Shown one piece after another: positions 2,914 through 62,966 of a DNA stretch of 64,000 nucleotides (position 1 is its first letter; the number at the start of each line of letters is the position of its first letter). Origin of the DNA: Patescibacteria group bacterium (GTDB taxonomy: Bacteria > Patescibacteriota > Microgenomatia > UBA1406). Location: positions 104,339 to 168,338 of the forward strand of contig JBAYJK010000002.1 in the NCBI GenBank assembly GCA_041665145.1. The letters are read 5' to 3'. The notes under the pieces are model-generated. The model was not told the DNA's origin and searched no databases. It saw nothing but the letters and a program-made list of their open reading frames with translations. Position numbers and translations under genes: made by a program.

Positions 2914-2977
2914 CAGGGGGCATTATACTCGGGCAAAGAAAAAAAGCAAGATAGACAAAAGGAATCAATCTATCGCA

Positions 2978-3180
2978 TAAATTCAAAAATCAAATAGACA
3001 ACCCTCAAGTGAAATTCAAAATTCAAATGTCATCCCCGTGCAAACAAAATCCAGAATGCTTGTCATCCCCGCGGAGGCGGGGATCTAGATTCCATTTCTG
3101 GATTCCCGACTAGCTCGGGAATGACATCCTTTGAATTTTAAGCTTGATTTGTCATTTGTATATTTGAATTTTGAATTTAA
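2978..3180. repeat. Composite hairpin spacer (CAAAATT family arms around two GC-rich palindromic units); copy 1 of a direct repeat
   Basis: Arms aaattcaaaaatcaaatagacaaccctcaagtgaaattcaaaattcaaatgtcat and atgacatcctttgaattttaagcttgatttgtcatttgtatatttgaattttgaattt. Core hairpins catccccgcggaggcggggat and attcccgactagctcgggaat. Positions 2991-3178 repeat at 3863-4023. Confidence 0.6.
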
Positions 3181-3201
3181 CTTTTGTGGTACCATGTACC
3201 C

Positions 3202-3846
3202 ATGGATGAAGGCGGACAGGACGTTGGAACCAGATTACACACAGAAACAGGACTAAAATTAACACTATTAGTAGCAGTGGCTCTTGCACTTGTTGGTTGC
3301 GATGGTGATTTGATTGGCTCGGTTCGAGCAGACATGCTCCCTAAACCAAATACCGACACTACACTACGACTGGCAGAAGGTCCCCTACACTCTTATCCGA
3401 ACCTGCTTACTGTTACCGGACAAAAACAAACAGTGGTCAATGCAACCTGCACGGGTTCAAACGCAGTTCTGGTTGCAGCTGAAGTTGACTCGGGAGTTGG
3501 ACACACATATCGAGCAAGAGTGAATAGCGACAATTTCCTTGATGGTCAAGCAGGAGGAAGCTTTCCTTCTAATCGAGGTATTTTCAAAATGGTAAAAAAT
3601 GGTGATAAGGATCAACCTGTACAAGTATTTGAGGTAGATATAGATTTTCCTAATGCGGTCACGTTTAAAGGCGATGCGTGCACATTCACCATCGGACATG
3701 GTGATGTAGGAAGAGTTGATCCTAAGCGGTCAGCACAACCAGTATCTCAAGTACCCGACTTCTCACCCGCCAAGCAAGTGATAGCAGATGCAGGATTTAC
3801 GCAACCTGCAAAACCTCCGGAATTAATCAAACCCGGAAGAACATAA
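3202..3846 (+). CDS. Putative lipoprotein, unknown function
   Basis: ORF 3184..3846. ATG at 3202. Hydrophobic stretch plus lipobox LTLLVAVALALVGC-DG. No recognisable domain. Confidence 0.5.
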   Translation: MDEGGQDVGTRLHTETGLKLTLLVAVALALVGCDGDLIGSVRADMLPKPNTDTTLRLAEGPLHSYPNLLTVTGQKQTVVNATCTGSNAVLVAAEVDSGVGHTYRARVNSDNFLDGQAGGSFPSNRGIFKMVKNGDKDQPVQVFEVDIDFPNAVTFKGDACTFTIGHGDVGRVDPKRSAQPVSQVPDFSPAKQVIADAGFTQPAKPPELIKPGRT

Positions 3847-3848
3847 CG

Positions 3849-4025
3849 TCAAATTCAACGCTCAAATAGACAACCCTCAAGTGAAATTCAAAATTTAAAT
3901 GTCATCCCCGGAACACAGTACCGGGGATCTAGATACAAGGTTCCTGGATTCCCGACTAGATCGGGAATGACATCCTTTGAATTTTAAGCTTGATTTGTCA
4001 TTTGTATATTTGAATTTTGAATTTA
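3849..4025. repeat. Composite hairpin spacer, copy 2 of the direct repeat
   Basis: caaatagacaaccctcaagtgaaattcaaaat..gtcatccccg..cggggatctagat..ctggattcccgactagatcgggaatgacatcctttgaattttaagcttgatttgtcatttgtatatttgaattttgaattt. Near-identical to 2991-3178 except for the first palindromic unit. Confidence 0.6.
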
Positions 4026-4113
4026 TATATGTATCAGCCTCTGAACCCGAGTTTTGCTCGATTCCAAAGGCTAATACCGCACGAAACTCTGCACGGGATT
4101 AGCTTGATGCATT

Positions 4114-8689: not shown

Positions 8690-9217
8690 ATGGTAGAATA
8701 CTCCATGACAGTCGCCGAGCTTTTAGACTTGAAAGCCGTTGATCACGAACTTGTTGGTTGTTGTGATTTCACTGTCCAGCACGCCCTGAGACCGAGTCAT
8801 AAAGGCACCGGAACACCGCCTGGAATATTGAGAACTGCACTATCTCTTACCGAAGGTTTGCCAACAGTAATCTGCGAACTTACTATGAAGGGCAATATTC
8901 CTATGCTTGATGTAGTGCCGTTTCAAAGAATGCACGTTGCCAAAGGATATCACGTTATGGATCAAGGAGGTACAATACGGCCAGAACATATTTTGTACAT
9001 AACGACTCAAGTAAATGGATCGTGGGCGAGAATTCCCATTACTATGGTTCTTCCTGGTGGCTTTATGCAACCGAGACGAGCAACACTCCCTTTTCCTATT
9101 GAATTTGGTCCGTATACTCTTGAACCACACATGAACCCTACACAGCTATTTGCATATATGAAGCAAAGCGTCCGATTCTTCGACGCAATGGTAAAAGCAA
9201 AAGGATTATTTAAGTAA
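8690..9217 (+). CDS. Hypothetical protein (start uncertain: 8690 or 8705)
   Basis: ORF 8606..9217. The first 28 codons overlap the minus-strand promoter above. TGgTAGAAT lies 5 nt before the ATG at 8705. No recognisable domain. Confidence 0.4.
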   Translation: MVEYSMTVAELLDLKAVDHELVGCCDFTVQHALRPSHKGTGTPPGILRTALSLTEGLPTVICELTMKGNIPMLDVVPFQRMHVAKGYHVMDQGGTIRPEHILYITTQVNGSWARIPITMVLPGGFMQPRRATLPFPIEFGPYTLEPHMNPTQLFAYMKQSVRFFDAMVKAKGLFK

Positions 9218-11416: not shown

Positions 11417-11553
11417 AGAATCAGTATACAGAAAATTAAGTTGTAAGTCGCAAGGTGTAAGATGTAATAAAGTCTGAAGTTGTAGGGTGTAAGTTGTAGT
11501 AAAATCCTAAGTTGATAAGCTGTAAGTAAGAAAAATTAGATTTATCTTTTGTT

Positions 11554-11886
11554 CTATGCGGTTTTAAGAGAGCTGGAGAAAATGAAAATTAATTGACGTA
11601 TTTCGTTGCGCAATCTCTCTAGAGCTGAATTGCTTTCTTCTTTATTAAGTAACTCTAACCAGTATTCAGTCTCCATAGCCTCCTTTTTGCAAATGGCTAG
11701 CTTTGTTATAAAGTCTTTTTTAGATACCGCACCACCAGCTTCTCTATAGTTTGCACCGATACTGGTCGATGATCGAAGCAATTGCTCAATTATATTTTTG
11801 TTAAAAGTTGTTTGTTGACAGGCTTTCAGATATTCAATAACTTTAACCGAGAAGTTACTTGTCCTTTCTCTTAAGTCATACATCAC
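11554..11886 (-). CDS. Four-helix-bundle protein (23S rRNA intervening-sequence protein family)
   Basis: 110 aa. LLRSSTSIGANYREA and KDFITKLAICKKEAMETEYWLELL match my recollection of the family signature (S.GANI.EG .. E..ET..WL). Confidence 0.7.
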   Translation of the reverse strand: MMYDLRERTSNFSVKVIEYLKACQQTTFNKNIIEQLLRSSTSIGANYREAGGAVSKKDFITKLAICKKEAMETEYWLELLNKEESNSALERLRNEIRQLIFIFSSSLKTA

Positions 11887-12019
11887 TTGATGCTATTTAT
11901 TTTCTAGCTTTATTACAACGGTTTATATACATCTCTACTCACATAATGTCCCACTTGTAACTTGCAACTTACTACTTACACCTTTAATACAACTTACAAC
12001 CTACGCCTTACGACTTTTT

Positions 12020-12028
12020 TGATATACT
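12020..12028 (+). promoter_or_regulatory. Extended -10 element placed for a leaderless dcd mRNA
   Basis: TGaTATACT followed by 6 nt (aactcc) and the ATG at 12035. No SD. Confidence 0.4.
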
Positions 12029-12034
12029 AACTCC

Positions 12035-13114: not shown

Positions 13115-13166
13115 TGGTTTATAGTTTATGGTTAATAGTCAAGAGTTAAGAGTTAAGAGTCAAAGA
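13115..13166. repeat. One-armed tandem heptamer block between convergent dut and permease genes
   Basis: ggtttat agtttat ggttaat agtcaag agttaag agttaag agtcaaa, with a strict 7-nt period. Confidence 0.5.
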
Positions 13167-14231: not shown

Positions 14232-14340
14232 ACGGATTAGTATAGAGGATTATTGTTCAATTTTCAGTTCTCAGTTTTAAATTTTCATTGAATTCTCAAT
14301 AGATATTTGAAAATTGATTGAAAACTGCAAATTAAAAATT
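14232..14340. repeat. Hairpin spacer (TTCAATT / GAAAATT word family)
   Basis: ttcaatt ttcagtt ctcagtt ttaaatt ttcattg .. tttgaaaattgattgaaaactgcaaattaaaaattgaaaatt. Also carries a candidate permease promoter CTGAAA-17-TATACT-7-ATG (14239-14267, minus strand). Confidence 0.55.
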
Positions 14341-14444
14341 GAAAATTGGCGGAGCCACCCTTCGCCCTCCGGGCTTCGGAGTAATCGTGTGGGTCAGCTC
14401 AGCTGACCTGTCACCACGCTGAGCGCGGTCTGCCACGCTGAGCG

Positions 14445-15689: not shown

Positions 15690-15694
15690 TCGGA

Positions 15695-15812
15695 GGATAG
15701 TTTTTAATTTACAATTTGCAGTTTTTAATCAATTTTCAAGATTCAGTTTCCAATTGAAAACTTCCCAGTATTGAAAACTGAATGAAAATTGAGAACTGTA
15801 AATTGAAAATTA
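15695..15812. repeat. Hairpin spacer (TTCAATT / GAAAATT word family)
   Basis: tttttaatttacaatttgcagtttttaatcaattttcaag .. attgaaaactgaatgaaaattgagaactgtaaattgaaaatt. The left arm resembles the reverse complement of the right arm of 14232-14340. Confidence 0.55.
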
Positions 15813-17403: not shown

Positions 17404-19395
17404 ATGAAAAATAAATTGAAGTATTTGTTCACTTTTCTTTTCCTGGTAACAGCCTTCTTCTCCAAAGCAACTTTGTCGAAAGCTGAGATTCAACAAAACG
17501 TTTTGGTAAACTGTTTGGATTACTACATTCATCCAGAAGCTCAGGAACATGCCGGTGAACCCGCATGGCCTGGTCAGTCGGGCGCACCGTATGTAGGAGA
17601 GTATCATATCTGGAACGGTATCACTCATATCCTTATGCTTAAAAACAAACCTGGATCTTTGTTTACCGTCGGTAAACCAATATATGTCATGCGCAACAAT
17701 ACCACGGGGTACGCAGGTGACCCTGCTGGTCACGAAGCTTTTTGCGCACTTGATCAAACGAATTCTCCGTTATGCACAGCAGATATGATGCAGCCGAACA
17801 GCATTAAGTCAGGCGAAGGATTCAGGATAGTCGATCAGACATCGCCGATCATGCCGGATGCAGCAGGGAATTTGACACTTCCCCACGTACGCAGCTACAC
17901 GCCTCTTTGGAGCAATGGGACTGATCAGGGAGATACGCAATTTTTTTACGGCGTACAAATTCTCGACGATTCAAGCGCACAAGATCAAACCAATGCAGTC
18001 GGCACGGCACTGAAGCTCGGAACGTTCGCCCCGACAGGAACAATTCCGAACACAACCACTAACTGCGTCAGCATCTGGTGGGACCCGGCAGGTAAGGTCA
18101 TCGACGCAAAAACGTTGGAACCGGTTTTAGGGACAACCGTAACACTGCACACTCTCGGAAGTAACAGCCAGAAAACACTGACTCAAGTCCCGAGAAATCC
18201 TTTTTTCGTGAACCCGCAAACAACAGGAGCAAACGGGAGCTTCACCTTTGCAGTTGATCCGGGAACATACGTACTCAATACTGTTAAAGAGGGATTTTCA
18301 TTCCCGATCGAACCCGTGACGTTACAAAATGTACGCGCGCAACTTGAACGACTTGATCCCACCCATGAATATGCTGACAGCACAAAACTTTATAATGATC
18401 CAAATGAAGAAATAATTGAGACTGCAGGGATAACTCAATTTCGATATATGGTTATGAATCCGACTGACCCGAATTACCCCGGGTCTGAGCCAGTAGTTTT
18501 GTCCTCACTCATTTCACTTGCACCAAATGGAAACCAGATTATTCAAGGCACGGTTTCGCATCCTAAGGGAATTGTGAAAGCTGCTATAAACGGGAGTGTT
18601 CTTGCCCAAACAACAGCAGGAATTCAGGGCAACTTTACGATGGAAATTGCCGCTGCACAAGTCCCGGCGAATCCTTCGGACATATCTATTACTGAAGAAA
18701 AGGTTCCGTTGATTGCCCGAGCACCGTTGCCGGCTTCCTTTTCTTCGATGCTTAACCGTTTGGTCGGAATTGTGTATGCACAAACGGAAACTCGCACATC
18801 AAAGCCGCTGCTTCTCAAACCAATTCCTTCCACTATGACCGGCTTTGCATATTCACAAAACTACAAAATCATGCCGAATGCAAAAGTGAACATTATTGCG
18901 TTCGGGAGCGTTGTTTATGCAACAGGACGCTCGGATGCAAATGGATTTGTCAGTTTTCCAACAAAGAACCTCCCCCCTTTCGGATACACCATTGAAGTCC
19001 GCGATTCAAGTACGGAGGCTGTTGTAAACAGACAAACACCAGACCAATTCATTACAACAAACAAAACATACGCAGCGGCAGAGAATGTAAATTATTACCG
19101 TCCGGTCACCTACGCACTCCCACAACCACAAATCGCTGTTCTCGCAAAAGTTCAGGCAGAAGCAGATACAAAATCAAACAGCAGTATTCAAACACCGCAT
19201 ATAACGACCGACAAATTACAACAGACTAATAGTAATTTCGAACCGACGACTGTTCCACAAGCAACCGGAGCCACAGCATCTGCTTCGTTCAATAATCTTC
19301 TTCCTTTTTTTCTGCTCATCGGAGTTCTCGTGGTATTTGCAGTCGGGATACTCGTAGTTTCGAAAATGCGCAGTTCCGGTAAGCCATTACTATGA
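17404..19395 (+). CDS. Large surface protein with carboxypeptidase-regulatory-like beta-sandwich repeats and C-terminal membrane anchor
   Basis: Signal peptide. Segments VIDAKTLEPVLGTTVTLH..ANGSFTFAVDPGTYVL and AKVNIIAFGSVVYATGRSDANGFVSFP. C-terminal LLPFFLLIGVLVVFAVGILVV-SKMRSSGK. Confidence 0.45.
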   Translation: MKNKLKYLFTFLFLVTAFFSKATLSKAEIQQNVLVNCLDYYIHPEAQEHAGEPAWPGQSGAPYVGEYHIWNGITHILMLKNKPGSLFTVGKPIYVMRNNTTGYAGDPAGHEAFCALDQTNSPLCTADMMQPNSIKSGEGFRIVDQTSPIMPDAAGNLTLPHVRSYTPLWSNGTDQGDTQFFYGVQILDDSSAQDQTNAVGTALKLGTFAPTGTIPNTTTNCVSIWWDPAGKVIDAKTLEPVLGTTVTLHTLGSNSQKTLTQVPRNPFFVNPQTTGANGSFTFAVDPGTYVLNTVKEGFSFPIEPVTLQNVRAQLERLDPTHEYADSTKLYNDPNEEIIETAGITQFRYMVMNPTDPNYPGSEPVVLSSLISLAPNGNQIIQGTVSHPKGIVKAAINGSVLAQTTAGIQGNFTMEIAAAQVPANPSDISITEEKVPLIARAPLPASFSSMLNRLVGIVYAQTETRTSKPLLLKPIPSTMTGFAYSQNYKIMPNAKVNIIAFGSVVYATGRSDANGFVSFPTKNLPPFGYTIEVRDSSTEAVVNRQTPDQFITTNKTYAAAENVNYYRPVTYALPQPQIAVLAKVQAEADTKSNSSIQTPHITTDKLQQTNSNFEPTTVPQATGATASASFNNLLPFFLLIGVLVVFAVGILVVSKMRSSGKPLL

Positions 19396-20372
19396 AGCCA
19401 AAGCAATGGGCGCTTGTTGGAGCCCTGATTGCAACCAGTATTGCTCTTGGTTTTTCACTATCGAATCTTGATTTCTTTGGATTTCTTCGGGAACAACATA
19501 CGCTTGATATTGTGTTTCTTGCGTCGTCGCTTATTCTCTGGTACTTCCTGCTTCTCATTATCTTCCTACTAGAGTTCAGCCAGATACAACACCTGCTTAT
19601 CGCTTTGTGGGCAGCTACTCTGTCGTTTAGTGTCGCCAACTTTATAGGAAATTGGCCGGTCGCTCTAATCTTTTTTAACAGCGTATTGTATTTTTTATTT
19701 CTACTGTACAGCTACTATGCAGTACAAAAACGGGCAAATTTGTTTCTCAAATTTTCGGCCCAGCAGATTTTTATCCCCGTTATGAAGCGGGGATTTACTT
19801 TTTTGATTGTGCTTTTTGCCTTGATGAGCTATTTTCAGGTAACCCAGAAAATTAAGACTAATGAACTTTTTGGCCCGGAAATGATCAGGCCCATTACCCG
19901 TCCGGCAGTAACCATCATTAATAAGCAGCTGACGACTCAAATTCGTACACAACTTGCGCAGATTCCCCAGTTTGGCAGTCTTGTTACAACTGAAATACTA
20001 ACACGCCTCGCGGTTGATCAGGTTGTCAACACCATAACTGACTCAGGAAAAAAAGATTTCTATGGCATACCGGGAAGCGCCATTGACAGCAAGTTAATTG
20101 CTATTTCCCAAGAAGGTGATATTGATGTCAGCCCGCTCGTTGATAGTCTTTTACCCCTCGTAATTAATGAAACATTGGAAAAGCTCGGTTTGTTTTCATG
20201 GTTGTTTCCCGTCGTTATCAGTTTAATAGTGGTCCTGTTACTCCAGCCTATTCTGTACCTTTTCGAGCTGTTTCTTTACATCCCGACCCCAATCGTTTTT
20301 AAACTGCTTATGGCCTCCGGCTTCATACATATTGAAAAGGAAACTGTGGAACGGGAAAAACTGGTGATATAA
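19392..20372 (+). CDS. Polytopic membrane protein, unknown function
   Basis: 326 aa with an ATGA overlap to the preceding gene. Multiple hydrophobic helices. Confidence 0.5.
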   Translation: MKPKQWALVGALIATSIALGFSLSNLDFFGFLREQHTLDIVFLASSLILWYFLLLIIFLLEFSQIQHLLIALWAATLSFSVANFIGNWPVALIFFNSVLYFLFLLYSYYAVQKRANLFLKFSAQQIFIPVMKRGFTFLIVLFALMSYFQVTQKIKTNELFGPEMIRPITRPAVTIINKQLTTQIRTQLAQIPQFGSLVTTEILTRLAVDQVVNTITDSGKKDFYGIPGSAIDSKLIAISQEGDIDVSPLVDSLLPLVINETLEKLGLFSWLFPVVISLIVVLLLQPILYLFELFLYIPTPIVFKLLMASGFIHIEKETVEREKLVI

Positions 20373-20511
20373 TAGGATGAGTTTTCAGTTTACGATTTCC
20401 AGTTTCTATTGAGTTTATAATTGGCAGTTTTTGTGCATCATGCTTTTGAAAAATAGTAATTAGAAACTAGCATTTCAATAGAAACTAAAAACTAGCAATT
20501 AGAAACAAAGT
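20373..20511. repeat. Hairpin spacer, AGTTTCTATTGA / TCAATAGAAACT family
   Basis: agtttctattga at 20401-20412 pairs with tcaatagaaact at 20475-20486. Flanked by tttctag / ctagaaa-type 7-nt words. Confidence 0.65.
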
Positions 20512-21582
20512 ATGAGCGACATTAAATTTAAGCTTCTTCACCGCCAACAAATTACACAGTCGCTCCGGAGTTTTTTGTTCCAGCGCGGGTATCTTGAAGC
20601 AGATGTTCCTGTATTGGTCCCAAGCCTTATTCCCGAAAGCTATCTGGAAGTATTTGAGACCAGTATTAAAGGTCCCACCATTAACCATCAACTATCAACT
20701 GATAACTATAAGGCTTATTTAACCGCCTCCCCCGAAGCATACCTCAAACGTTTGCTTGTTGCCGGATCCGGAAATGTGTTCTATCTGGGGAAAGCGTTCC
20801 GAAATGGTGAGCCATTCGGACCGATGCATAACCATGAGTTCACAATATTGGAATGGTACAAAATCGGGGCTTCCTATCGATCTCTTATGGCTGAAATCGA
20901 AGAGATGGTGCGATCTGTCCTTGAGGGTTTAACCCTTACAGGGTTAAACCCTGCAAGCCTATCGTCACCCTGGGAATATATCACCATGCAGGAAGCGTTC
21001 GAACGGTTTGTGCCAAAGGACGAAATTGTTAAATTGCTAAACGGCCAAATTGCTGACAATAGCAATATAGCATTAGAACAATTTAACAATAGTGTTGAAT
21101 TTGATCGTCTCTACGTTCAATATATCGAGCCGAATCTTGGCACACGCGGTAAGCCAACGTTCGTAATAGACTTCCCAACCTGGCAATCGCCTCTAGCAAA
21201 ATCACGGATCACGAATCACGAATCACGAAACAAACGCACAGATAAACACTCGATCCGAGATACGAGATGCGAGATGCGAGATGTGGTTGCCGAGCGATTT
21301 GAATTGTATATTAATGGAATCGAGCTGATTAACGGCTGGACAGAGCTGGCCGACTGGAAGAAGCAGCAGGATAACTTTGATGCAGAACAACAGGAGCGCA
21401 CAGTTCAGAACAAGACTCCCTACCCTGCAGATACCGGCTTTATCGAAGCGCTGAGAAAAGGGATGCCCGAATGCAGCGGGTGTGCAATGGGAGTAGACAG
21501 ATTGATAATGGTGCTGACAGGAAAGAAGACGCTGGATGAGGTAATTGCTTTTCCGACAAAAGATTTATTCAAGACTCGTTAA
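20512..21582 (+). CDS. epmA: EF-P lysine aminoacylase EpmA-like (class II LysRS catalytic core without anticodon domain)
   Basis: Motif 2 FRNGEPFGPMHNHEFTILEWY. AERFELYINGIELINGWTEL. Motif 3 GCAMGVDRLIMVLTG. About 350 aa. efp lies in the same window. Confidence 0.6.
   Translation: MSDIKFKLLHRQQITQSLRSFLFQRGYLEADVPVLVPSLIPESYLEVFETSIKGPTINHQLSTDNYKAYLTASPEAYLKRLLVAGSGNVFYLGKAFRNGEPFGPMHNHEFTILEWYKIGASYRSLMAEIEEMVRSVLEGLTLTGLNPASLSSPWEYITMQEAFERFVPKDEIVKLLNGQIADNSNIALEQFNNSVEFDRLYVQYIEPNLGTRGKPTFVIDFPTWQSPLAKSRITNHESRNKRTDKHSIRDTRCEMRDVVAERFELYINGIELINGWTELADWKKQQDNFDAEQQERTVQNKTPYPADTGFIEALRKGMPECSGCAMGVDRLIMVLTGKKTLDEVIAFPTKDLFKTR
21198..21283. repeat. In-frame two-block heptamer mini-insertion inside epmA
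   Basis: AATCACG GATCACG AATCACG AATCACG - 24 nt - CGAGATA CGAGATG CGAGATG CGAGATG. Encodes SRITNHESRNKRTDKHSIRDTRCEMRDV between the conserved LAK and VAERFE. Confidence 0.75.
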
Positions 21583-31970: not shown

Positions 31971-32043
31971 ATTATACCATAGTCAATACTATGAGTCAAT
32001 TATTGCTATCCACTCTTGACAAATTTCACAAATCTTTCATAAT
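31971..32043. promoter_or_regulatory. Divergent promoter pair, both leaderless
   Basis: Minus strand: TTGACT-17-TATAAT-7 nt-ATG 31963. Plus strand: TTGACA (32016-32021)-16-CATAAT-6 nt-ATG 32050. Confidence 0.55.
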
Positions 32044-32049
32044 GGTTAA

Positions 32050-42261: not shown

Positions 42262-42267
42262 ACGTGT

Positions 42268-42313
42268 ATATTAGCACATTTTCATTTGATTTCTTTTTAC
42301 AGGCTACTATACT
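42268..42313. promoter_or_regulatory. Divergent promoters at the right edge of the 24-gene block
   Basis: Minus strand: extended -10 TGcTAATAT (42268-42276), 6 nt before ATG 42261. Plus strand: TTGATT (42286-42291)-16-TATACT (42308-42313)-8 nt-ATG 42322. Confidence 0.4.
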
Positions 42314-42321
42314 AGTTAGTA

Positions 42322-44849: not shown

Positions 44850-45146
44850 ATGAAACTCGGACCATTTTACTTTGATACAAAAGAAGTATTTCTCGTAATA
44901 TTAATCGCCTTCCTGGGAGCGACATTTTATTTCCAATGGAATATCCCCTATTTTGATGAACAGAAATTGCTGCTCTTGACCGTTCTAATTCTTTTGATAA
45001 AAGGATTATTGCCGGCTATTCACAACGAAAGCTTTATGGTATTCGTACTTCTGACGGTATTTATGAGTCTATACCTTGAACTGTTTCCATTACTTTTGTT
45101 CTTCTTTATCGGGTTGGGATTCTTCAAACTGCTGAGAATAATATAG
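44850..45146 (+). CDS. Small three-helix membrane protein
   Basis: 98 aa, strongly hydrophobic. Confidence 0.45.
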   Translation: MKLGPFYFDTKEVFLVILIAFLGATFYFQWNIPYFDEQKLLLLTVLILLIKGLLPAIHNESFMVFVLLTVFMSLYLELFPLLLFFFIGLGFFKLLRII

Positions 45147-45288
45147 ATAAAATTTCTAGTTGCTAATTACCAGTTTCTATTGAGCTTCTAGGTACTATTT
45201 TCTATTTGGCGACGTTTAGAAACTATTGATTAGAAACTAGTACTTCAATAGAAACTATAAACTAGAAATTAGTAACTGATTCAGAGTA
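45147..45288. repeat. Hairpin spacer, AGTTTCTATTGA / TCAATAGAAACT family
   Basis: agtttctattga at 45172-45183 pairs with tcaatagaaact at 45245-45256. Lies between convergent genes. Confidence 0.65.
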
Positions 45289-45855
45289 TTATGAATTTTC
45301 TCTTCCCGAATAGCTTCCGTCTTCCGGATTTATTTTGATCTTCTCACCTTTTTTAATAAAAAGCGGAACCATTACTTTCACACCTGTTTCAAGTGTAACT
45401 TGTTTTTTGGCATTTGTTGCCGTGTCACCTCGATCGGCCGCATCCGCTTCGGTCACCGTAAGCGTGACACTCATCGGAGGCCGGGCACCAACTGGTTTAT
45501 CATCAAGCATAAGGACATACATTGCCTGACCCTCTTTCAAGAAATCTGCCGCAGAGCCGACTAAGTCGCGCAATACTTCGTATTCCTCAAAGGTCTGGTC
45601 GTGCATAAAATGCAATGTTTCAGAGTCACCGAATAAAAACTGCACGGGAACAGCGTCAACTGTCAGTACTTCAACGTCATCGTTCGAAGTAAAGACCTGT
45701 GCAAGACTTTTATCTTTTGTGATACCTTTAAGGAAAGTTCGAACAACAGTACGTCCTTTTCCTGGATGATAAAACTCAACAGTACTTACCTGGTAAATAT
45801 CATCTCGAAATTTGATATAGTCCTTTTTTTTAAGGTTAGCAGCGGTTGTGTTCAT
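45289..45855 (-). CDS. efp: Translation elongation factor P
   Basis: 188 aa. YHPGKGRTVVRTFLKG loop with the modifiable Lys. Typical three-domain length. Confidence 0.85.
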   Translation of the reverse strand: MNTTAANLKKKDYIKFRDDIYQVSTVEFYHPGKGRTVVRTFLKGITKDKSLAQVFTSNDDVEVLTVDAVPVQFLFGDSETLHFMHDQTFEEYEVLRDLVGSAADFLKEGQAMYVLMLDDKPVGARPPMSVTLTVTEADAADRGDTATNAKKQVTLETGVKVMVPLFIKKGEKIKINPEDGSYSGRENS

Positions 45856-46010
45856 AATAGCAATTTAAAATTCAAAATTTGAAATTTAAAATCAATTCAA
45901 AATTCTTAATTTGAAATTCTAAAACTTCACGGAAAATATTCATCAGGAATTCAGAATTGACTAGAAATTTTGAATTTCGAATTTCGAATTAAATTTTTGC
46001 TTCAGCGAAA
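45856..46010. repeat. Hairpin spacer (AAATTCAAAAT family) between the 16S trailer and efp
   Basis: aatttaaaattcaaaatttgaaatttaaaatcaattcaaaattc .. gaaattttgaatttcgaatttcgaattaaattt. Confidence 0.5.
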
Positions 46011-46111: not shown

Positions 46112-47762
46112 GAAAGGAGATGATCCAGCCGCTCCTTCCAGAACGGCTACCTTGTTACGACTTAGTCCCCATCGCTACATTCACCCTAGTTCCCCGTTAT
46201 TGGGGCTTTTTAAGTGCCTGTAACTTTGGTGGCTTGACGGGCGGTGAGTGCAAGACCCAAGAACGTATTCACCGCGGTGTAGCTGACCCGCGATTACTAC
46301 GAATTCCGCGTTCATGAGGGCGAATTTCAGCCCTCAATCCCCACTGAGAATAGATTTCAGCGATTTGCATCTTCTTACGAAGTCGCTAAGCGCGTTGTTG
46401 CTACTCATTGTAACATGTGTGCAGCCCAGGGTATAAGCGACATGATGACTTGACGTCCGCCTCTCCTTCCTCCTCGACGATAGTCGAGGCAGTCTCCTGA
46501 GACACTTGTAACTCAGGATAAGGGTTGCGCTCGTTGTCCCACTTAAGGGCACTCCTCACGGAACGAGCTGACGACAGCCATGCACCAGCTGTTCCAACCT
46601 TCTTGCGAATTTCTCCCGTTTCCGGGAAATAGGACGTTGGAATGTCAAACCCTGGTGAGGTTCTTCGGTTCGTGTCGAATTGAGCCACATGTTCCACTCG
46701 TTGTGTGGGTCCCCGCCTATTCATTTGAGTTTTAACCTTGCGGTCGTACTTCCCAGGCGGTCTGCTTAATGCGTAAGCTTGCGCCCCTCCCTTCCCGATA
46801 AATCGGGAAAAGAAGAACTAGCAGACATGCGTTTAAGGCTAGGACTACAGGGGTCTCTAATCCCTTTCGCTCCCCTAGCTTTCGAGCCTCAGCGTCAGTC
46901 GATTTCCAGGAAGTTGCCTTCGCCATTGGTATTCCATTCTTTATCAACGCATTTTACCGCTACAAAGAATGTTCTACTTCCCTGAAAAGAACTCTAGGCT
47001 GGTAGTATTGCACCCGACTCCTCGTTGAGCGAGGAGATTTTAAGCACAACTTACCAGTCCGCCTACGCGTCCCTTTACGCCCAATAAAACCGGATAATGC
47101 TTGTGGCCTACGTTTGACCGATGCTTCTGGCACGTAGTTTGCAGCCACTTTCTAGCGAGGTACCGTCAAATCCTTGCGGACCTTCTTCCCTCGCCACAGC
47201 GGTTTACGACCCTAAGGCCTTCTTCCCGCACGCGGTGTCGCTGCGTCAGGCTTTCGCCCATTGCGCAATATTCTTGGTTGCTGCCTCCCGTAGGAGTGGG
47301 GGCCGTATCTCAGTCCCCCTCTGGCTGTCCGTCCTCCAAGACCAGCTACCCGTCATAGGTTTGGTAAGCCGTTACCTCACCAACTGCCTGATAGGCCGCA
47401 GGCCCCTCCCATAGTGAGCAGTTACGCCCTTTCTTCTTACGAACGTATGGAGTATTACCCCGTCTTTCGACGAGCTATCCTCCGCTACGGGGTAGGTTCC
47501 CACGTGTTACTCAGCCGTCCGCCGCTGGAATCATAGACAGCACATAGGAAATAAACTCAAAATTCAAATCCACAAAAATCAAATCAAACTCAAATAACAA
47601 ATGTTTGAAGTTTCAAACATTGAGATTTTGAATTTGAATTGTGGATTTGTTATTTGTCATTTGAATTTTATTCACTGTGTGCTGTCCACAAAACCCGCTC
47701 GACTTGCATACCTAAGACACACCGCCAGCATTTATCCTGAGCCATGATCAAACTCTTAAATA
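46112..47762 (-). rRNA. 16S rRNA gene with about 110-130-nt insertion in the V1 helix; not followed by 23S
   Basis: 5' AGAGTTTGATCATGGCTCAG. 3' GTCGTAACAAGGTAGCCG..GGATCATCTCCTTTCT. Conserved blocks are present throughout. efp follows about 250 nt downstream. Confidence 0.9.
47535..47687 (-). other. Intervening-sequence-like extension of 16S helix 6 (V1)
   Basis: Base stem acagcaca(c)ag / ct(a)tgtgctgt encloses a CAAAATT-family hairpin. 36/39 identity to the intergenic copy at 1153-1191. Confidence 0.6.
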
Positions 47763-47847
47763 TGTGAATAGATTTTTGAGGTCTAATCGTTATATTAGAG
47801 TAGAAATTTGCTTTTATTATAAGTACAAAATGAATAGATGAACCGTC

Positions 47848-49557: not shown

Positions 49558-49646
49558 AGTCTTATTTCTTATTTCTTATTACTTGCTACTTATTACTTTC
49601 CTTTATACCTTCTACTTTCTACTTTTTACTTTTATAAGTATGTTAC
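49558..49646. repeat. One-armed tandem heptamer block
   Basis: cttattt cttattt cttatta cttgcta cttatta ctttcct ttatacc ttctact ttctact ttttact, with a strict 7-nt period. Confidence 0.55.
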
Positions 49647-60985: not shown

Positions 60986-61690
60986 ATGCGTGCACGACGT
61001 ATTTTTTTATATGCTTTTTGTTTTGTCATTCTCTCGATGTGGAGCTCTGTAGCTGCACAAAGCGTATCTGCTGCAACCATGCAGTTTTCTCCGAGTTCTG
61101 GTAGTTACAGCACGGGAACAGCCTTTCAAGTGCAGGTTATTGTGAACACACAAGGCGTAGACACAACAAGCTCGGATGCAGTCATTAAATATGACAGCGC
61201 TATTTTAGCTGTAGATTCGGTTTCTTATGGATCGTTGTACCCCACTGTTCTGCATAGCGTCCAGAATAATAAACTGTATATTTCGGGAATGGTCAGTAAC
61301 CCGGGAAGTGTCATCAACAGTTCAGGAACGCTTGCTACCATAAATTTTAAAGGGTTAACCGCATCTCCCGGAACCATTTCCTTTGATTGCACAACGGGTC
61401 AAACAAATGATTCGAACGTCACTAAAAATGATACTAATGCCACAGATATTCTTGATTGTTCGACGCTCGCCAGTGCGACATACACATTTAGCGGAAGCAC
61501 GATCAGCGTCACTCCCGGTCCGTCAGCAACTCCCGGAGCAGCTACCAGCACACCGACCCCGATCGGTACGACTGAGCCCGTACCAACTCAATTACCTGCA
61601 GCCGGTATCACTGATTTAGTTCCGCTTATACCCCGTCTGTTGATGGGTCTTCTGTTTTTGGTTATCGGACTTGTCCCTCTTTTGATATAA
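60986..61690 (+). CDS. Secreted cohesin-like protein with PT linker and C-terminal LPAAG plus hydrophobic tail
   Basis: Signal peptide. SGSYSTGTAFQVQVIVNTQGVDTTSSDAVIKYDSAILAVDSV..GTLATINFKGLTASPGTISF. LPAAGITDLVPLIPRLLMGLLFLVIGLVPLLI. Confidence 0.55.
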   Translation: MRARRIFLYAFCFVILSMWSSVAAQSVSAATMQFSPSSGSYSTGTAFQVQVIVNTQGVDTTSSDAVIKYDSAILAVDSVSYGSLYPTVLHSVQNNKLYISGMVSNPGSVINSSGTLATINFKGLTASPGTISFDCTTGQTNDSNVTKNDTNATDILDCSTLASATYTFSGSTISVTPGPSATPGAATSTPTPIGTTEPVPTQLPAAGITDLVPLIPRLLMGLLFLVIGLVPLLI

Positions 61691-61836
61691 TGCTCTATAA
61701 AGTTTCTAGTTTTTAATTTCTAGTTTCTATTGAATTTTTAATTGCTATTTGTTAGTTACTAAACATATTTAGAAATTAATACTTAGAAACTAGCAATTTA
61801 TTAGAAACTATAAGTTAGCAATTAGAAACTATATAC
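61691..61836. repeat. Hairpin spacer, AGTTTCTATTGA family
   Basis: tttctag tttttaa tttctag tttctat tga (agtttctattga at 61722-61733). Right arm ttagaaactagcaatttattagaaactataagttagcaattagaaact. Confidence 0.6.
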
Positions 61837-62367
61837 ATGATTCTTCCCATCGTTACCGCTCCACAAAGCGTACTCTCTACGCCCACAAGGCAAATTACTA
61901 CAATCGATAAAAAAATCCGTGAGCTTATTCGCGATATGACTGATACGCTTTTGTCCTGCAAAGATCCACTTGGCGTGGGGTTAGCTGCTCCTCAAGTAGG
62001 TGTTCCGCTTGCCCTCTGCATTGTGAAACCGACCAGGAAATCGCCCGTTGAGGTTTTCATAAACCCCAAAATCGTTGCGTTCTCTAATAAAAAAACTATT
62101 CATAAATCAACTCTCGAAGGTTGTCTTTCCATTCCGAAGGTCTGGTCACATGTTAATAGACCGACAACCGTTGACGTCGAATACGAGACGATGGAAGGCG
62201 TGAAACTCCGACGACATATTACCGGGTATGAGGCGCATATTATTCAACACGAGGTTGATCATTTGAATGGTGTCCTCTTCACACACCAAGCGCTTTCACA
62301 ACACCAACCGTTTTACACCATAAAACGGAAAAACGGTGAAGAAGAGTTTGTGGAAATGGAACTGTGA
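61837..62367 (+). CDS. def: Peptide deformylase
   Basis: GVGLAAPQVG, EGCLSIP, QHEVDHLNG. All three PDF motifs are present. Confidence 0.9.
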   Translation: MILPIVTAPQSVLSTPTRQITTIDKKIRELIRDMTDTLLSCKDPLGVGLAAPQVGVPLALCIVKPTRKSPVEVFINPKIVAFSNKKTIHKSTLEGCLSIPKVWSHVNRPTTVDVEYETMEGVKLRRHITGYEAHIIQHEVDHLNGVLFTHQALSQHQPFYTIKRKNGEEEFVEMEL

Positions 62368-62503
62368 GGATAATTTCTAATTCTTAATTTCTAGTTTCTA
62401 TTGAGTTTGCAGATACTAGTTTCTAATTACGAATTATTTAGAAATTAACACCTGAAAACTGATACTTCAATAGAAACTGTAAACTAGGAGTTAGAAACTA
62501 ATT
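62368..62503. repeat. Hairpin spacer, AGTTTCTATTGA / TCAATAGAAACT family
   Basis: agtttctattga at 62393-62404 pairs with tcaatagaaact at 62467-62478. Lies between convergent def and the HTH gene. Confidence 0.65.
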
Positions 62504-62722
62504 CTAGAGTTCTGACTTCATTCCCAGAAACCTCAGCACTTCCTCTTTCTTGTAGCGCCTGTCTCCACGGGAATTAATACGGATTGCAGGCAGTTTTCCT
62601 TTTTTGCCCCACCGTTTAAGAGTTATCTTTGATACACGCAACACATCGGATACTTCCTCAATAGTCAGGAGTTCGGGAAGATCATCAAACGCGAGATGTT
62701 TCTTTTGGACTGTGTTTGACAT
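62504..62722 (-). CDS. Small helix-turn-helix DNA-binding protein (excisionase/MerR-like HTH)
   Basis: 72 aa. LLTIEEVSDVLRVSKITLKRWGKKGKLPAIRINSRGDRRYKKEEV. Confidence 0.7.
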   Translation of the reverse strand: MSNTVQKKHLAFDDLPELLTIEEVSDVLRVSKITLKRWGKKGKLPAIRINSRGDRRYKKEEVLRFLGMKSEL

Positions 62723-62729
62723 AGTTTGT

Positions 62730-62758
62730 AGTATAGACGATTTTTACATAAATGTCAA
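62730..62758 (-). promoter_or_regulatory. Consensus promoter placed for leaderless HTH mRNA
   Basis: Minus strand TTGACA-17-TATACT-9 nt-ATG (62722). Confidence 0.5.
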
Positions 62759-62929: not shown

Positions 62930-62966
62930 TTTAAACAAAAACCCGCCGTATACAAACGGCGGGTTT
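62930..62966 (-). terminator. Intrinsic terminator after rplL
   Basis: Minus strand aaacccgccg-tttgtata-cggcgggttt followed by ttgtttaaaaa. Confidence 0.65.

Follow-up and report, generated by a model that had tools for sequence, protein, structure and literature searches.

Heptamer-armed hairpin spacers between genes of a Patescibacteria genome and their likeness to rRNA intervening sequences

Short tandemly repeated repetitive (STRR) sequences are the known intergenic heptamer repeats of heterocystous cyanobacteria, with the specific units CCCCAGT, TTGGTCA and CAACAGT, and reportedly they also lie inside helix P12 of the RNase P RNA. The Correia elements of Neisseria and the Rickettsia palindromic elements are short, non-autonomous, dispersed palindromes of ~100-150 bp that show presence/absence polymorphism and are co-transcribed with adjacent genes; Correia transcripts are RNase III substrates, and the Rickettsia palindromic elements insert into genes, including RNA genes. 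Further heptamers are found between the genes of Nostoc (GGGGAYT; PMC4692102), of Beggiatoaceae, cyanobacteria and Bacteroidetes (TAACTGA; PMC4679880) and of Xanthomonas, where GGGAATC repeats lie close to the upstream open reading frame (ORF; ~28 nt after it), often form inverted pairs, and are flanked by convergent ORFs in 16% of cases versus 7-8% for divergent ones (PMC4692102). Intervening sequences (IVSs) of rRNA genes with an S23p/PF05635 ORF are known from Leptospira and Coxiella (Ralph & McClelland 1993; PMC4990558). The Coxiella IVS is a selfish element in helix 45 of the 23S rRNA, with an S23p ORF and terminal inverted repeats that form a stem of 28 bp, in which RNase III cuts beside a variable number of tandem GACAGAT heptamers, whose copy number differs between strains (PMC4990558). 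Here, we compare these systems with family A, a set of four hairpin spacers in a stretch of 64,000 nucleotides (hereafter the window) from a Patescibacteria group bacterium of the Microgenomatia (assembly GCA_041665145.1, contig JBAYJK010000002.1, positions 104,339 to 168,338). On balance, and at somewhat better than an even chance, we take the family A spacers for ORF-less relatives of rRNA IVSs that resemble MITEs (miniature transposable elements with inverted repeats) and insert at gene boundaries.

The family A spacers

Each family A copy spans the full gap between two called ORFs, and two of the four bracket def, as a first-pass annotation of this DNA had proposed. The copies are as follows.

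A1, gap 20373-20511 (139 nt): hairpin, element at 20382-20505, between a gene of 326 aa (19392-20372, +) and epmA (20512-21582, +); exact cores at 20401-20412 and 20475-20486
A2, gap 45147-45288 (142 nt): hairpin, element at 45153-45275, between a convergent pair, a 98-aa ORF (44850-45146, +) and efp (45289-45855, -); exact cores at 45172-45183 and 45245-45256
A3, gap 61691-61836 (146 nt): hairpin, element at 61703-61828, between a cohesin-domain gene (60986-61690, +) and def (61837-62367, +); left core at 61722-61733 exact, right core at 61798-61809 with two mismatches
A4, gap 62368-62503 (136 nt): hairpin, element at 62374-62497, between a convergent pair, def (+) and a BldC/excisionase-like helix-turn-helix (HTH) gene (62504-62722, -); exact cores at 62393-62404 and 62467-62478

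The epmA gene was identified with TIGR00462 (288.5 bits against a cut-off of 286.9), and the closest named relatives of the def and EpmA of the window are Roizmanbacteria, Levybacteria and Gottesmanbacteria. The family A element is an AT-rich nested palindrome of ~125 nt (G+C 21-28%) with a loop of ~60 nt that contains no ORF. Over ~130 aligned columns, the four copies have a mean column identity of 75%, and their pairwise local alignments reach z 25-37 relative to shuffles. Their arms are written in the words AGTTTCT, AATTTCT, AGTTGCT and similar ones. The word AGTTTCTA occurs 18 times in the window, versus 2.42 +/- 1.34 expected, and 16 of the 18 occurrences lie within the four copies. The 12-nt core AGTTTCTATTGA is present in A1, A2 and A4 as one exact match per strand, with a spacing of 61-62 nt, and the right core of A3 (AGTTTCTAATAA) differs from it at two positions; a scan for the core thereby confirmed the inverted core pair as first described.

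Fold stability was scored relative to dinucleotide shuffles. A4 is stable on both strands (-39.7 and -40.1 kcal/mol, z -6.8 and -7.3 for + and -), and A3 is stable above all on the + strand (-41.6 kcal/mol, z -6.2; - strand -26.4 kcal/mol, z -2.4), its arms of 75 nt being 73% complementary. A2 is moderate (z -3.2 and -2.8 on + and -), and A1 is weak on the + strand (z -0.65; - strand z -3.1). The RNAalifold consensus for the family has 44 pairs, three of them with compensatory changes. Autocorrelation peaked at lag 7 in all 15 window spacers that were tested (z 3.0-6.4), lag 14 showed an echo, and the family A copies gave lag-7 z-scores of 4.2-6.1. The lack of a period-7 signal, which the first-pass annotation had named as a refutation, is therefore not what was observed. 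The period of 7 nt is real, but "strict", as it had been called, is an overstatement: only five near-exact period-7 runs, all short, occur in the whole window. The tandem 7-nt unit typical of STRRs is thus present in family A, though its words are degenerate. Taken together, alignment, word counts and autocorrelation support the description of the copies as nested hairpins that belong to one true repeat family and have an internal period of 7 nt. The idea that the words supply stop codons in all frames was rejected, as it is true for CTAG-type words but not in general (AAAATCC arms have no stops, and AT-rich words carry stops by chance). A hairpin at 973-1031, next to a tRNA-Arg gene, has 22-nt arms (82% complementary) that consist of family A words in reversed arm order (AAGAAACTGTAAG ... 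CTAACAGTTTCTAA).

The same gene junctions differ between relatives. L003, whose def is 70% identical, has a gap of 7 nt before def, its def overlaps the HTH gene, and there is no counterpart of A3 or A4; L214, from the same sample as L003 (EpmA 73% identical), has a gap of 8 nt before epmA and no counterpart of A1. Before epmA, a gap of 13 nt is found in L215 (EpmA 64%) and a 121-nt spacer of other words in L217 (EpmA 56%), where efp is followed by a heptamer-periodic gap (z 5.0) of 304 nt. Around def, L002 (def 78% identical) has spacers of 142 nt and 78 nt, and L004/L005 (68%) have spacers of 146/139 nt and 116 nt made of yet other words. The spacer upstream of def in L002 is homologous not to family A but to family C (z 25), which in the window lies elsewhere. 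As one relative is without elements at three junctions, others have different families there and family C sits at differing sites, the spacers look like a dispersed insertion element rather than a conserved regulatory site. Spacers have thus been gained, lost or replaced at orthologous junctions among relatives, and the host insulator role that had been suggested for them is not supported, with the junctions empty in one relative and occupied by other families in others.

The empty sites also show where A1 and A3 are placed. Two copies of a box resembling an extended -10 element, TGATATAAT, lie directly 5' of family A copies:

20365-20373 (+): TGATATAAT box, overlapping the upstream stop codon, directly 5' of A1
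61683-61691 (+): TGATATAAT box, overlapping the upstream stop codon, directly 5' of A3

In the spacer-free relatives L214 and L215, the box lies 7-12 nt before the epmA ATG. The box at the A3 site is conserved in L002, L003 and L004, and in L003, which has no spacer, it lies 6 nt before the def ATG. At the empty sites, the upstream gene thus ends in TGATATAAT overlapping its stop codon, followed by 6-12 nt and the ATG. Judged by this spacing, the arrangement is a leaderless-gene layout and the downstream genes appear to be leaderless. A1 and A3 are placed exactly between the box and the ATG, whereas A2 and A4 lie between convergent stop codons. All three TGATATAAT boxes of the window abut a heptamer hairpin. 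No promoter consensus match was found inside the elements; their TTGA(G/A)N core with TAnTTn after it does not amount to a conserved -10.

Other genes in the window have a -10 box 6-8 nt before the ATG (32000-32049, 42262-42321 and 62730-62758, -). The HTH gene downstream of A4 (62504-62722, -; 72 aa) is preceded by a promoter close to the consensus (TTGACA-17-TATACT), with 7 nt between the end of this promoter and the ATG, and it is convergent to def in L002, L003 and L004, with or without spacers. A canonical bidirectional intrinsic terminator, with a GC-rich stem and A and T runs, follows rplL in L003 (2380-2430); the window has only a weak site, at 62943-62959. A1 and A2 flank epmA together with a block of ~30 tightly packed ORFs (21579-45146), including one of 1827 aa, that has no Pfam or PHROG match and no hairpin spacers. 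EpmA has 356 aa in the window versus 302-322 aa in the closest relatives, and the 3' end of its gene overlaps the first gene of this block by 4 nt. The distance between epmA and efp is only 4.3 kb in L217, whereas in the window the block lies between them. A prophage reading of the block was rejected, as it has no PHROG or Pfam matches.

The window elements have no match in Rfam. In the 10 kb beyond the right end of the window (L204), there are no further copies, and the gaps contain ordinary TTGACT-N17-TATAAT promoters. Strain polymorphism was not seen, the Logan contig L001 being identical to the window; the contig occurs in JGI 3300037810 and in SRR18595301.

Other heptamer families, the 16S rRNA insertion and the PF05635 gene

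The window contains further spacers of the same architecture that are built from other words:

1125-1284 (B1): family B (caaaatt words), hairpin spacer between a thyX-like gene and tRNA-Arg
2970-3183 (B2): family B, hairpin spacer with nested GC-rich mini-hairpins
3849-4035 (B3): family B, brackets with B2 a gene of 220 aa (3184-3846)
45856-46000 (B4): family B, separates efp from the 16S rRNA gene (3' end)
47536-47686 (-): family B hairpin within the gene for 16S rRNA, at the helix 6 tip (V1), IVS-like
14250-14350 (C1): family C (ttcaatt/ttttcag words), hairpin spacer
15690-15812 (C2): family C, hairpin spacer, with a TGATATAAT box at 15689-15681 (-) between it and tRNA-Ala
11417-12034 (-): family D element, heptamer-word arms at 11437-11512 and 11954-12020 that form an inverted repeat around an ORF
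49558-49646: one-armed period-7 block of cttattt words (lag-7 z 5.1)
13115-13166: one-armed period-7 block of agagtta words (lag-7 z 6.4)

The other word families were thus found where the first-pass annotation had placed them, except that its gttgtaag blocks are not spacers but the two arms of one hairpin of 618 nt (family D). This Patescibacteria genome has at least five families of non-coding, heptamer-periodic palindromic elements. B2 and B3 align locally with z 67, and C2 is the window homologue (z 25) of the def-upstream spacer of L002. Elements of the same family are adjacent in 7 of 14 neighbouring pairs, versus 2.4-2.5 expected by permutation (p ~0.002-0.004): B1-B2-B3, D1-D2, C1-C2, B4 and the 16S copy, A3-A4 and A1-A2. 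Such pairs often bracket a single gene (def, the gene of 220 aa at 3184-3846 and the IVS-protein gene). The loops of B2 and B3 contain small GC-rich palindromes (3029-3125 and 3901-3971; GTCATCCCCG...CGGGGAT and ATTCCCGA...TCGGGAAT), and the same motif occurs in the efp-downstream spacer of L217 at ~9190-9215. [quoted passage not shown]

The copy in the 16S rRNA gene (46113-47763, -) had been missed in the first reading. It is an insertion of 149 nt that stands at the helix 6 tip in place of 4 nt of the Rfam model, and it folds into a hairpin of -58.8 kcal/mol with a lag-7 z of 5.7. The insertion is 78% identical to the intergenic B1 over ~130 nt, which shows that a family B element is found both between genes and in an rRNA helix tip, whereas all four family A copies lie between protein genes. 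The STRRs reported in helix P12 of the RNase P RNA are a parallel to this insertion.

The family D arms (47 nt, 77% complementary, 461 nt apart) enclose ORF 11554-11886 (-), which encodes a four-helix-bundle 23S rRNA IVS protein (PF05635, E 5e-16; TIGR02436, E 1.4e-22). The element is flanked by a ClpB-like AAA gene and a dCTP deaminase gene, with no reverse transcriptase nearby; PF05635 proteins share homology with Avd from diversity-generating retroelements (PMC10053308). We used an alignment of 36 PF05635 homologues to collect 80 metagenome loci, 73 of which had both flanks, and scored inverted repeats between the 220-nt upstream and downstream flanks, with windows shifted by 550 nt as the control. 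Inverted flanks at z > 4 were found for 61 of the 73 genes. The median z was 8.8 in the 39 loci with full flanks and 0.4 in their shifted windows, of which 6.5% were above 4. The arms average 45 nt with 79% Watson-Crick pairing, and their words are of the same kinds as those of families B and C (AATTTCA, AAATCCA, AAATGAC, CAATTTT).

Similar arms surround PF05635 genes on plasmids of Cyanobacteriota, Bacteroidota, Chloroflexota and Spirochaetota (L206-L213; hosts Planktothrix, Nostoc, Gloeocapsa, Pseudanabaena, Bernardetia, Treponema and Chlorohelix). In seven of the eight plasmid loci the flanks are inverted repeats of each other at z > 5, plain tandem heptamers are seen in the flanks of six, and the two flanks are mutually complementary where both are long enough, as exemplified by (ATTCGCA)4 ... 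(TTGCGAA)4, by (CCCCAAT)n(CGTAAAT)n with (ATTTACG)n, and by (TTAGTGA)15 with TCACTAA. The plasmid genes are wedged in defence operons (drmD/MmeI, cas2/cas1, helicase/methylase, DUF1156/HEPN), and 23S_rRNA_IVP genes had already been noted inside cas loci (PMC3936711). We found no description in the literature of a systematic bracketing of PF05635 genes by inverted heptamer arrays, and an association of intergenic heptamer repeats with PF05635 genes is not reported in PMC4679880, PMC4990558, PMC3936711 or PMC4692102.

Comparison with described systems and with hairpins in other phyla

Like IVSs, the elements described here have terminal inverted repeats that form a long stem (family A, the 16S copy and family D), tandem heptamers in the ORF-side arm and an optional four-helix-bundle ORF in the loop (family D), and an insertion that sits on the tip of an rRNA helix (helix 6 of the 16S rRNA, for a family B copy). 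Unlike IVSs, family A and most other copies are found between protein genes, have no ORF and measure ~125 nt, and the rRNA copy is in helix 6 of the 16S rRNA, whereas that of Coxiella is in helix 45 of the 23S rRNA (PMC4990558). With MITEs, they share dispersed copies with whole-unit homology, terminal inverted repeats and presence/absence polymorphism at orthologous sites. However, the window contains no transposase, the only ORF-bearing relative encodes PF05635, and no cognate transposase is known. The elements differ from the Correia and Rickettsia elements in their heptamer-word arms, in having no clear target-site duplication and in the absence of sequence similarity. Family A probably acts like an IVS or a hairpin MITE, but it has neither the rRNA location and ORF of the former nor the cognate transposase of the latter.

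The likeness to STRRs and other heptamer repeats lies in the 7-nt units, the intergenic location near ORF ends, the excess of convergent over divergent contexts and the inverted array pairs known from Xanthomonas. The differences are that the words here are AT-rich and degenerate and do not form perfect tandem arrays, that the two arms are always paired into a nested hairpin whose core is conserved and non-periodic, and that several word families coexist in one genome; the STRR unit sequences are not matched by the family A words. The resemblance to STRRs that the first-pass annotation had pointed out is closer than was guessed, as inverted tandem heptamers stand on both sides of PF05635 genes on plasmids of Nostoc and Planktothrix. 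Intergenic heptamer repeats as such are already known. In agreement with the first-pass annotation, a full-text literature search gave no description of such spacers in genomes of the Candidate Phyla Radiation (CPR), and none was found in the literature of ORF-less copies of the word families of PF05635 arms that fill gene junctions and a 16S helix.

Three other systems were considered and rejected. REP sequences and bacterial interspersed mosaic elements are likewise imperfect palindromes of intergenic regions that are commoner at 3' ends and scarcer between divergent genes, but REPs are GC-rich and 20-40 nt long, whereas the elements here are heptamer-periodic, ~125 nt long and 21-28% G+C, and no gene for a REP-associated tyrosine transposase (RAYT) is found in the window. 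Integron attC sites do not fit, as the ends GTTTCTA/TAGAAAC do not match GTTRRRY, the contexts include convergent housekeeping genes and there is no integrase in the window. Unlike CRISPR and TIGR arrays, which consist of direct repeats, the repeats here are inverted and not arrayed, and the window has no cas or tas gene.

A loosened family A pattern, AGTTTCTA-N30-60-TAGAAACT-N5-25-TAGAAACT, was scanned over species-representative genomes and matched at least 118 loci, versus ~3 by our own estimate for uniform composition. Among the matches listed, ~100 are intergenic hairpins with tandem heptamer arms, (AGTTTCT)n ... (AGAAACT)n, with CTAG every 7 nt and with mirrored arm variants (AGTTGCT, AGTCCCT, AGTTTCG, AGTTTCC). 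These hairpins belong to Acidobacteriota, Bacteroidota, Kiritimatiellota, Chloroflexota, Firmicutes (Oscillospiraceae), Elusimicrobia and several Patescibacteria; they abut ORFs, in ++ (30), -- (19), convergent (20) and divergent (5) contexts. Loops are conserved within clades, such as TTGGCATCCGCC in Bacteroidales. No Rfam family was found at the 18 cross-phylum loci that were compared with Rfam, the full-text bacterial literature contains no report that we could find of the (AGTTTCT)n hairpin sequence, and no PF05635 gene lies near the hairpins in the 118 listed loci. Arm polarity (T-rich versus A-rich 5' arm) gave only chance matches in viral contigs (3 and 5), and the collected loci contained too few non-seed hairpins for this comparison.

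Candidate explanations and their meaning

If family A consists of ORF-less, MITE-like relatives of rRNA IVSs, a transcribed copy would fold into an imperfect A-U-rich duplex of ~45-50 bp, which RNase III might cut as it does the stems of characterised IVSs. Such processing had been suggested in the first-pass annotation. It is plausible by likeness of architecture, given the IVS-like place of a family B copy in a 16S helix tip, the 23S rRNA IVS protein gene in family D and the Coxiella precedent (PMC4990558), and it would explain how the host tolerates copies in rRNA and between a promoter and a start codon. As a side effect, neighbouring cistrons would be separated or capped by 5' and 3' hairpins, and the processed downstream RNA would begin with a short, unstructured, A-rich leader.

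Several results weigh against this reading. The exact core pair had no match in a scan of genome contigs and metagenome contigs, and family A as such appears to be private to this lineage. As neither a family A copy with an ORF nor AGTTTCT-type arms around CPR PF05635 genes were found, what links family A to IVS-type elements is a common architecture and its occurrence alongside families B, C and D. Among the ~60 window ORFs scanned against Pfam, none encodes a transposase, RAYT or reverse transcriptase, no rnc gene was seen in the 64 kb, and the only possible target-site duplication is a 5-bp ATGAG at A1, the ends of the other copies being AT-rich, palindromic and hence ambiguous. PF05635 is not known to act in mobility or as a transposase. 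Nor do the data demonstrate that a hairpin of the sense-strand RNA is under selection: 68 PF05635 arm pairs had 114 G·U versus 131 A·C mismatches (p 0.31), and fold energies of 66 hairpins in tandem contexts were balanced between the sense and antisense strands (34 versus 32, Wilcoxon p 0.42). As mismatches and energies are symmetric, the complementarity of the arms may reflect the origin of the element or a symmetric role at the DNA level rather than selection on one transcript.

The spacers might alternatively be host-selected, bidirectional transcript-end elements (U-tract-independent terminators, 3' stabilisers or insulators) that evolved in place and share words through a common factor or mutational bias, which we consider unlikely. 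The stable hairpins agree with such a role, as does the convergent excess (20 versus 5 divergent) of the cross-phylum hairpins that abut ORF ends among the matches listed, a bias that is shared by the Xanthomonas heptamer repeats ~28 nt after the upstream ORF (PMC4692102). Classical terminator-like sites in the window are also not above shuffles (28 versus 20.4 +/- 5.1 and 23 versus 18 +/- 4). However, the scarcity in divergent regions is equally expected of any insertion that avoids promoters, one relative manages without spacers at all three junctions, and two of the four family A copies are in a 5' position relative to a gene, which counts against a terminator role. A homologous copy is found within the gene for 16S rRNA, in which a terminator could not be tolerated, as to end transcription there would be lethal. 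Reading of the sequence and a terminator scan revealed no U tract after the stem of any copy, and the stems are A-U-rich, so that, as first annotated, these are not classical intrinsic terminators; nor is there a G·U bias on the sense strand. Less probable still are DNA-level arrays of 7-bp sites for an oligomerising protein, for which the omega repressor of pSM19035, which binds heptads, is the model. The inverted layout would then reflect symmetric binding, with a four-helix-bundle or small HTH protein as the partner. The 7-bp period in every family, the symmetric mismatch types with no RNA-strand signal and the proximity of all three TGATATAAT boxes to an element agree with this explanation, and the arrays flank the gene of a small, oligomeric, nucleic-acid-binding family (PF05635 is Avd-like; PMC10053308). 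Yet the arms are complementary in register with mirrored variant words, neither of which simple site arrays need, the word alphabets vary by family and genome and would require many binding specificities, and an insertion at an rRNA helix tip fits a constraint on RNA structure better than a protein array.

The least probable explanation, to which we give very little credence, is simple-sequence expansion in place at AT-rich gaps, by heptamer slippage and hairpin-templated correction and without any movement. Among the long simple-sequence repeats of prokaryotes, heptamers are the commonest (cited in PMC4679880 and PMC4692102), their number varies between Coxiella strains (PMC4990558), and the one-armed tandem blocks at 49558 and 13115 are what such expansion could leave. 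However, the family A copies are homologous as whole units that share differing words in a set order as well as a 12-nt core that is not periodic, and the empty sites measure only 7-13 nt and offer little to expand from. The identity of 78% over ~130 nt between B1 and the 16S insertion, as well as the presence of family C at different loci in two genomes, also argues against growth in place.

The IVS-like, MITE-like reading of family A can be extended, though tentatively and with more doubt than confidence, to a cross-phylum class of selfish heptamer palindromes that comprises the CPR spacers, STRRs, Xanthomonas-type paired arrays and (AGTTTCT)n hairpins. The full-length form of this class would have the PF05635 gene in its loop, and rRNA IVSs would be copies that landed in rRNA. 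If this is true, the orphan four-helix-bundle family would serve the element as its own factor for binding nucleic acids, and a single class would account at once for STRRs, IVSs and some of the rRNA insertions of CPR bacteria.

Few known genomes are as compact as those of the CPR, yet this one gives whole gaps and part of its 16S rRNA gene to these elements. If the elements are IVS-like and processed by RNase III, they would explain part of the unusual rRNA insertions of CPR bacteria, show how leaderless genes survive an insert of 140 nt between promoter and start codon, and be a marker of recent genome turnover among close relatives. Heptamer-armed hairpins are tied to the widespread PF05635 protein, itself so far without a function, in Patescibacteria and on plasmids of Cyanobacteriota, Bacteroidota and Spirochaetota, and STRR repeats, rRNA IVSs and S23p, puzzles of at least 30 years, are joined into one testable problem.

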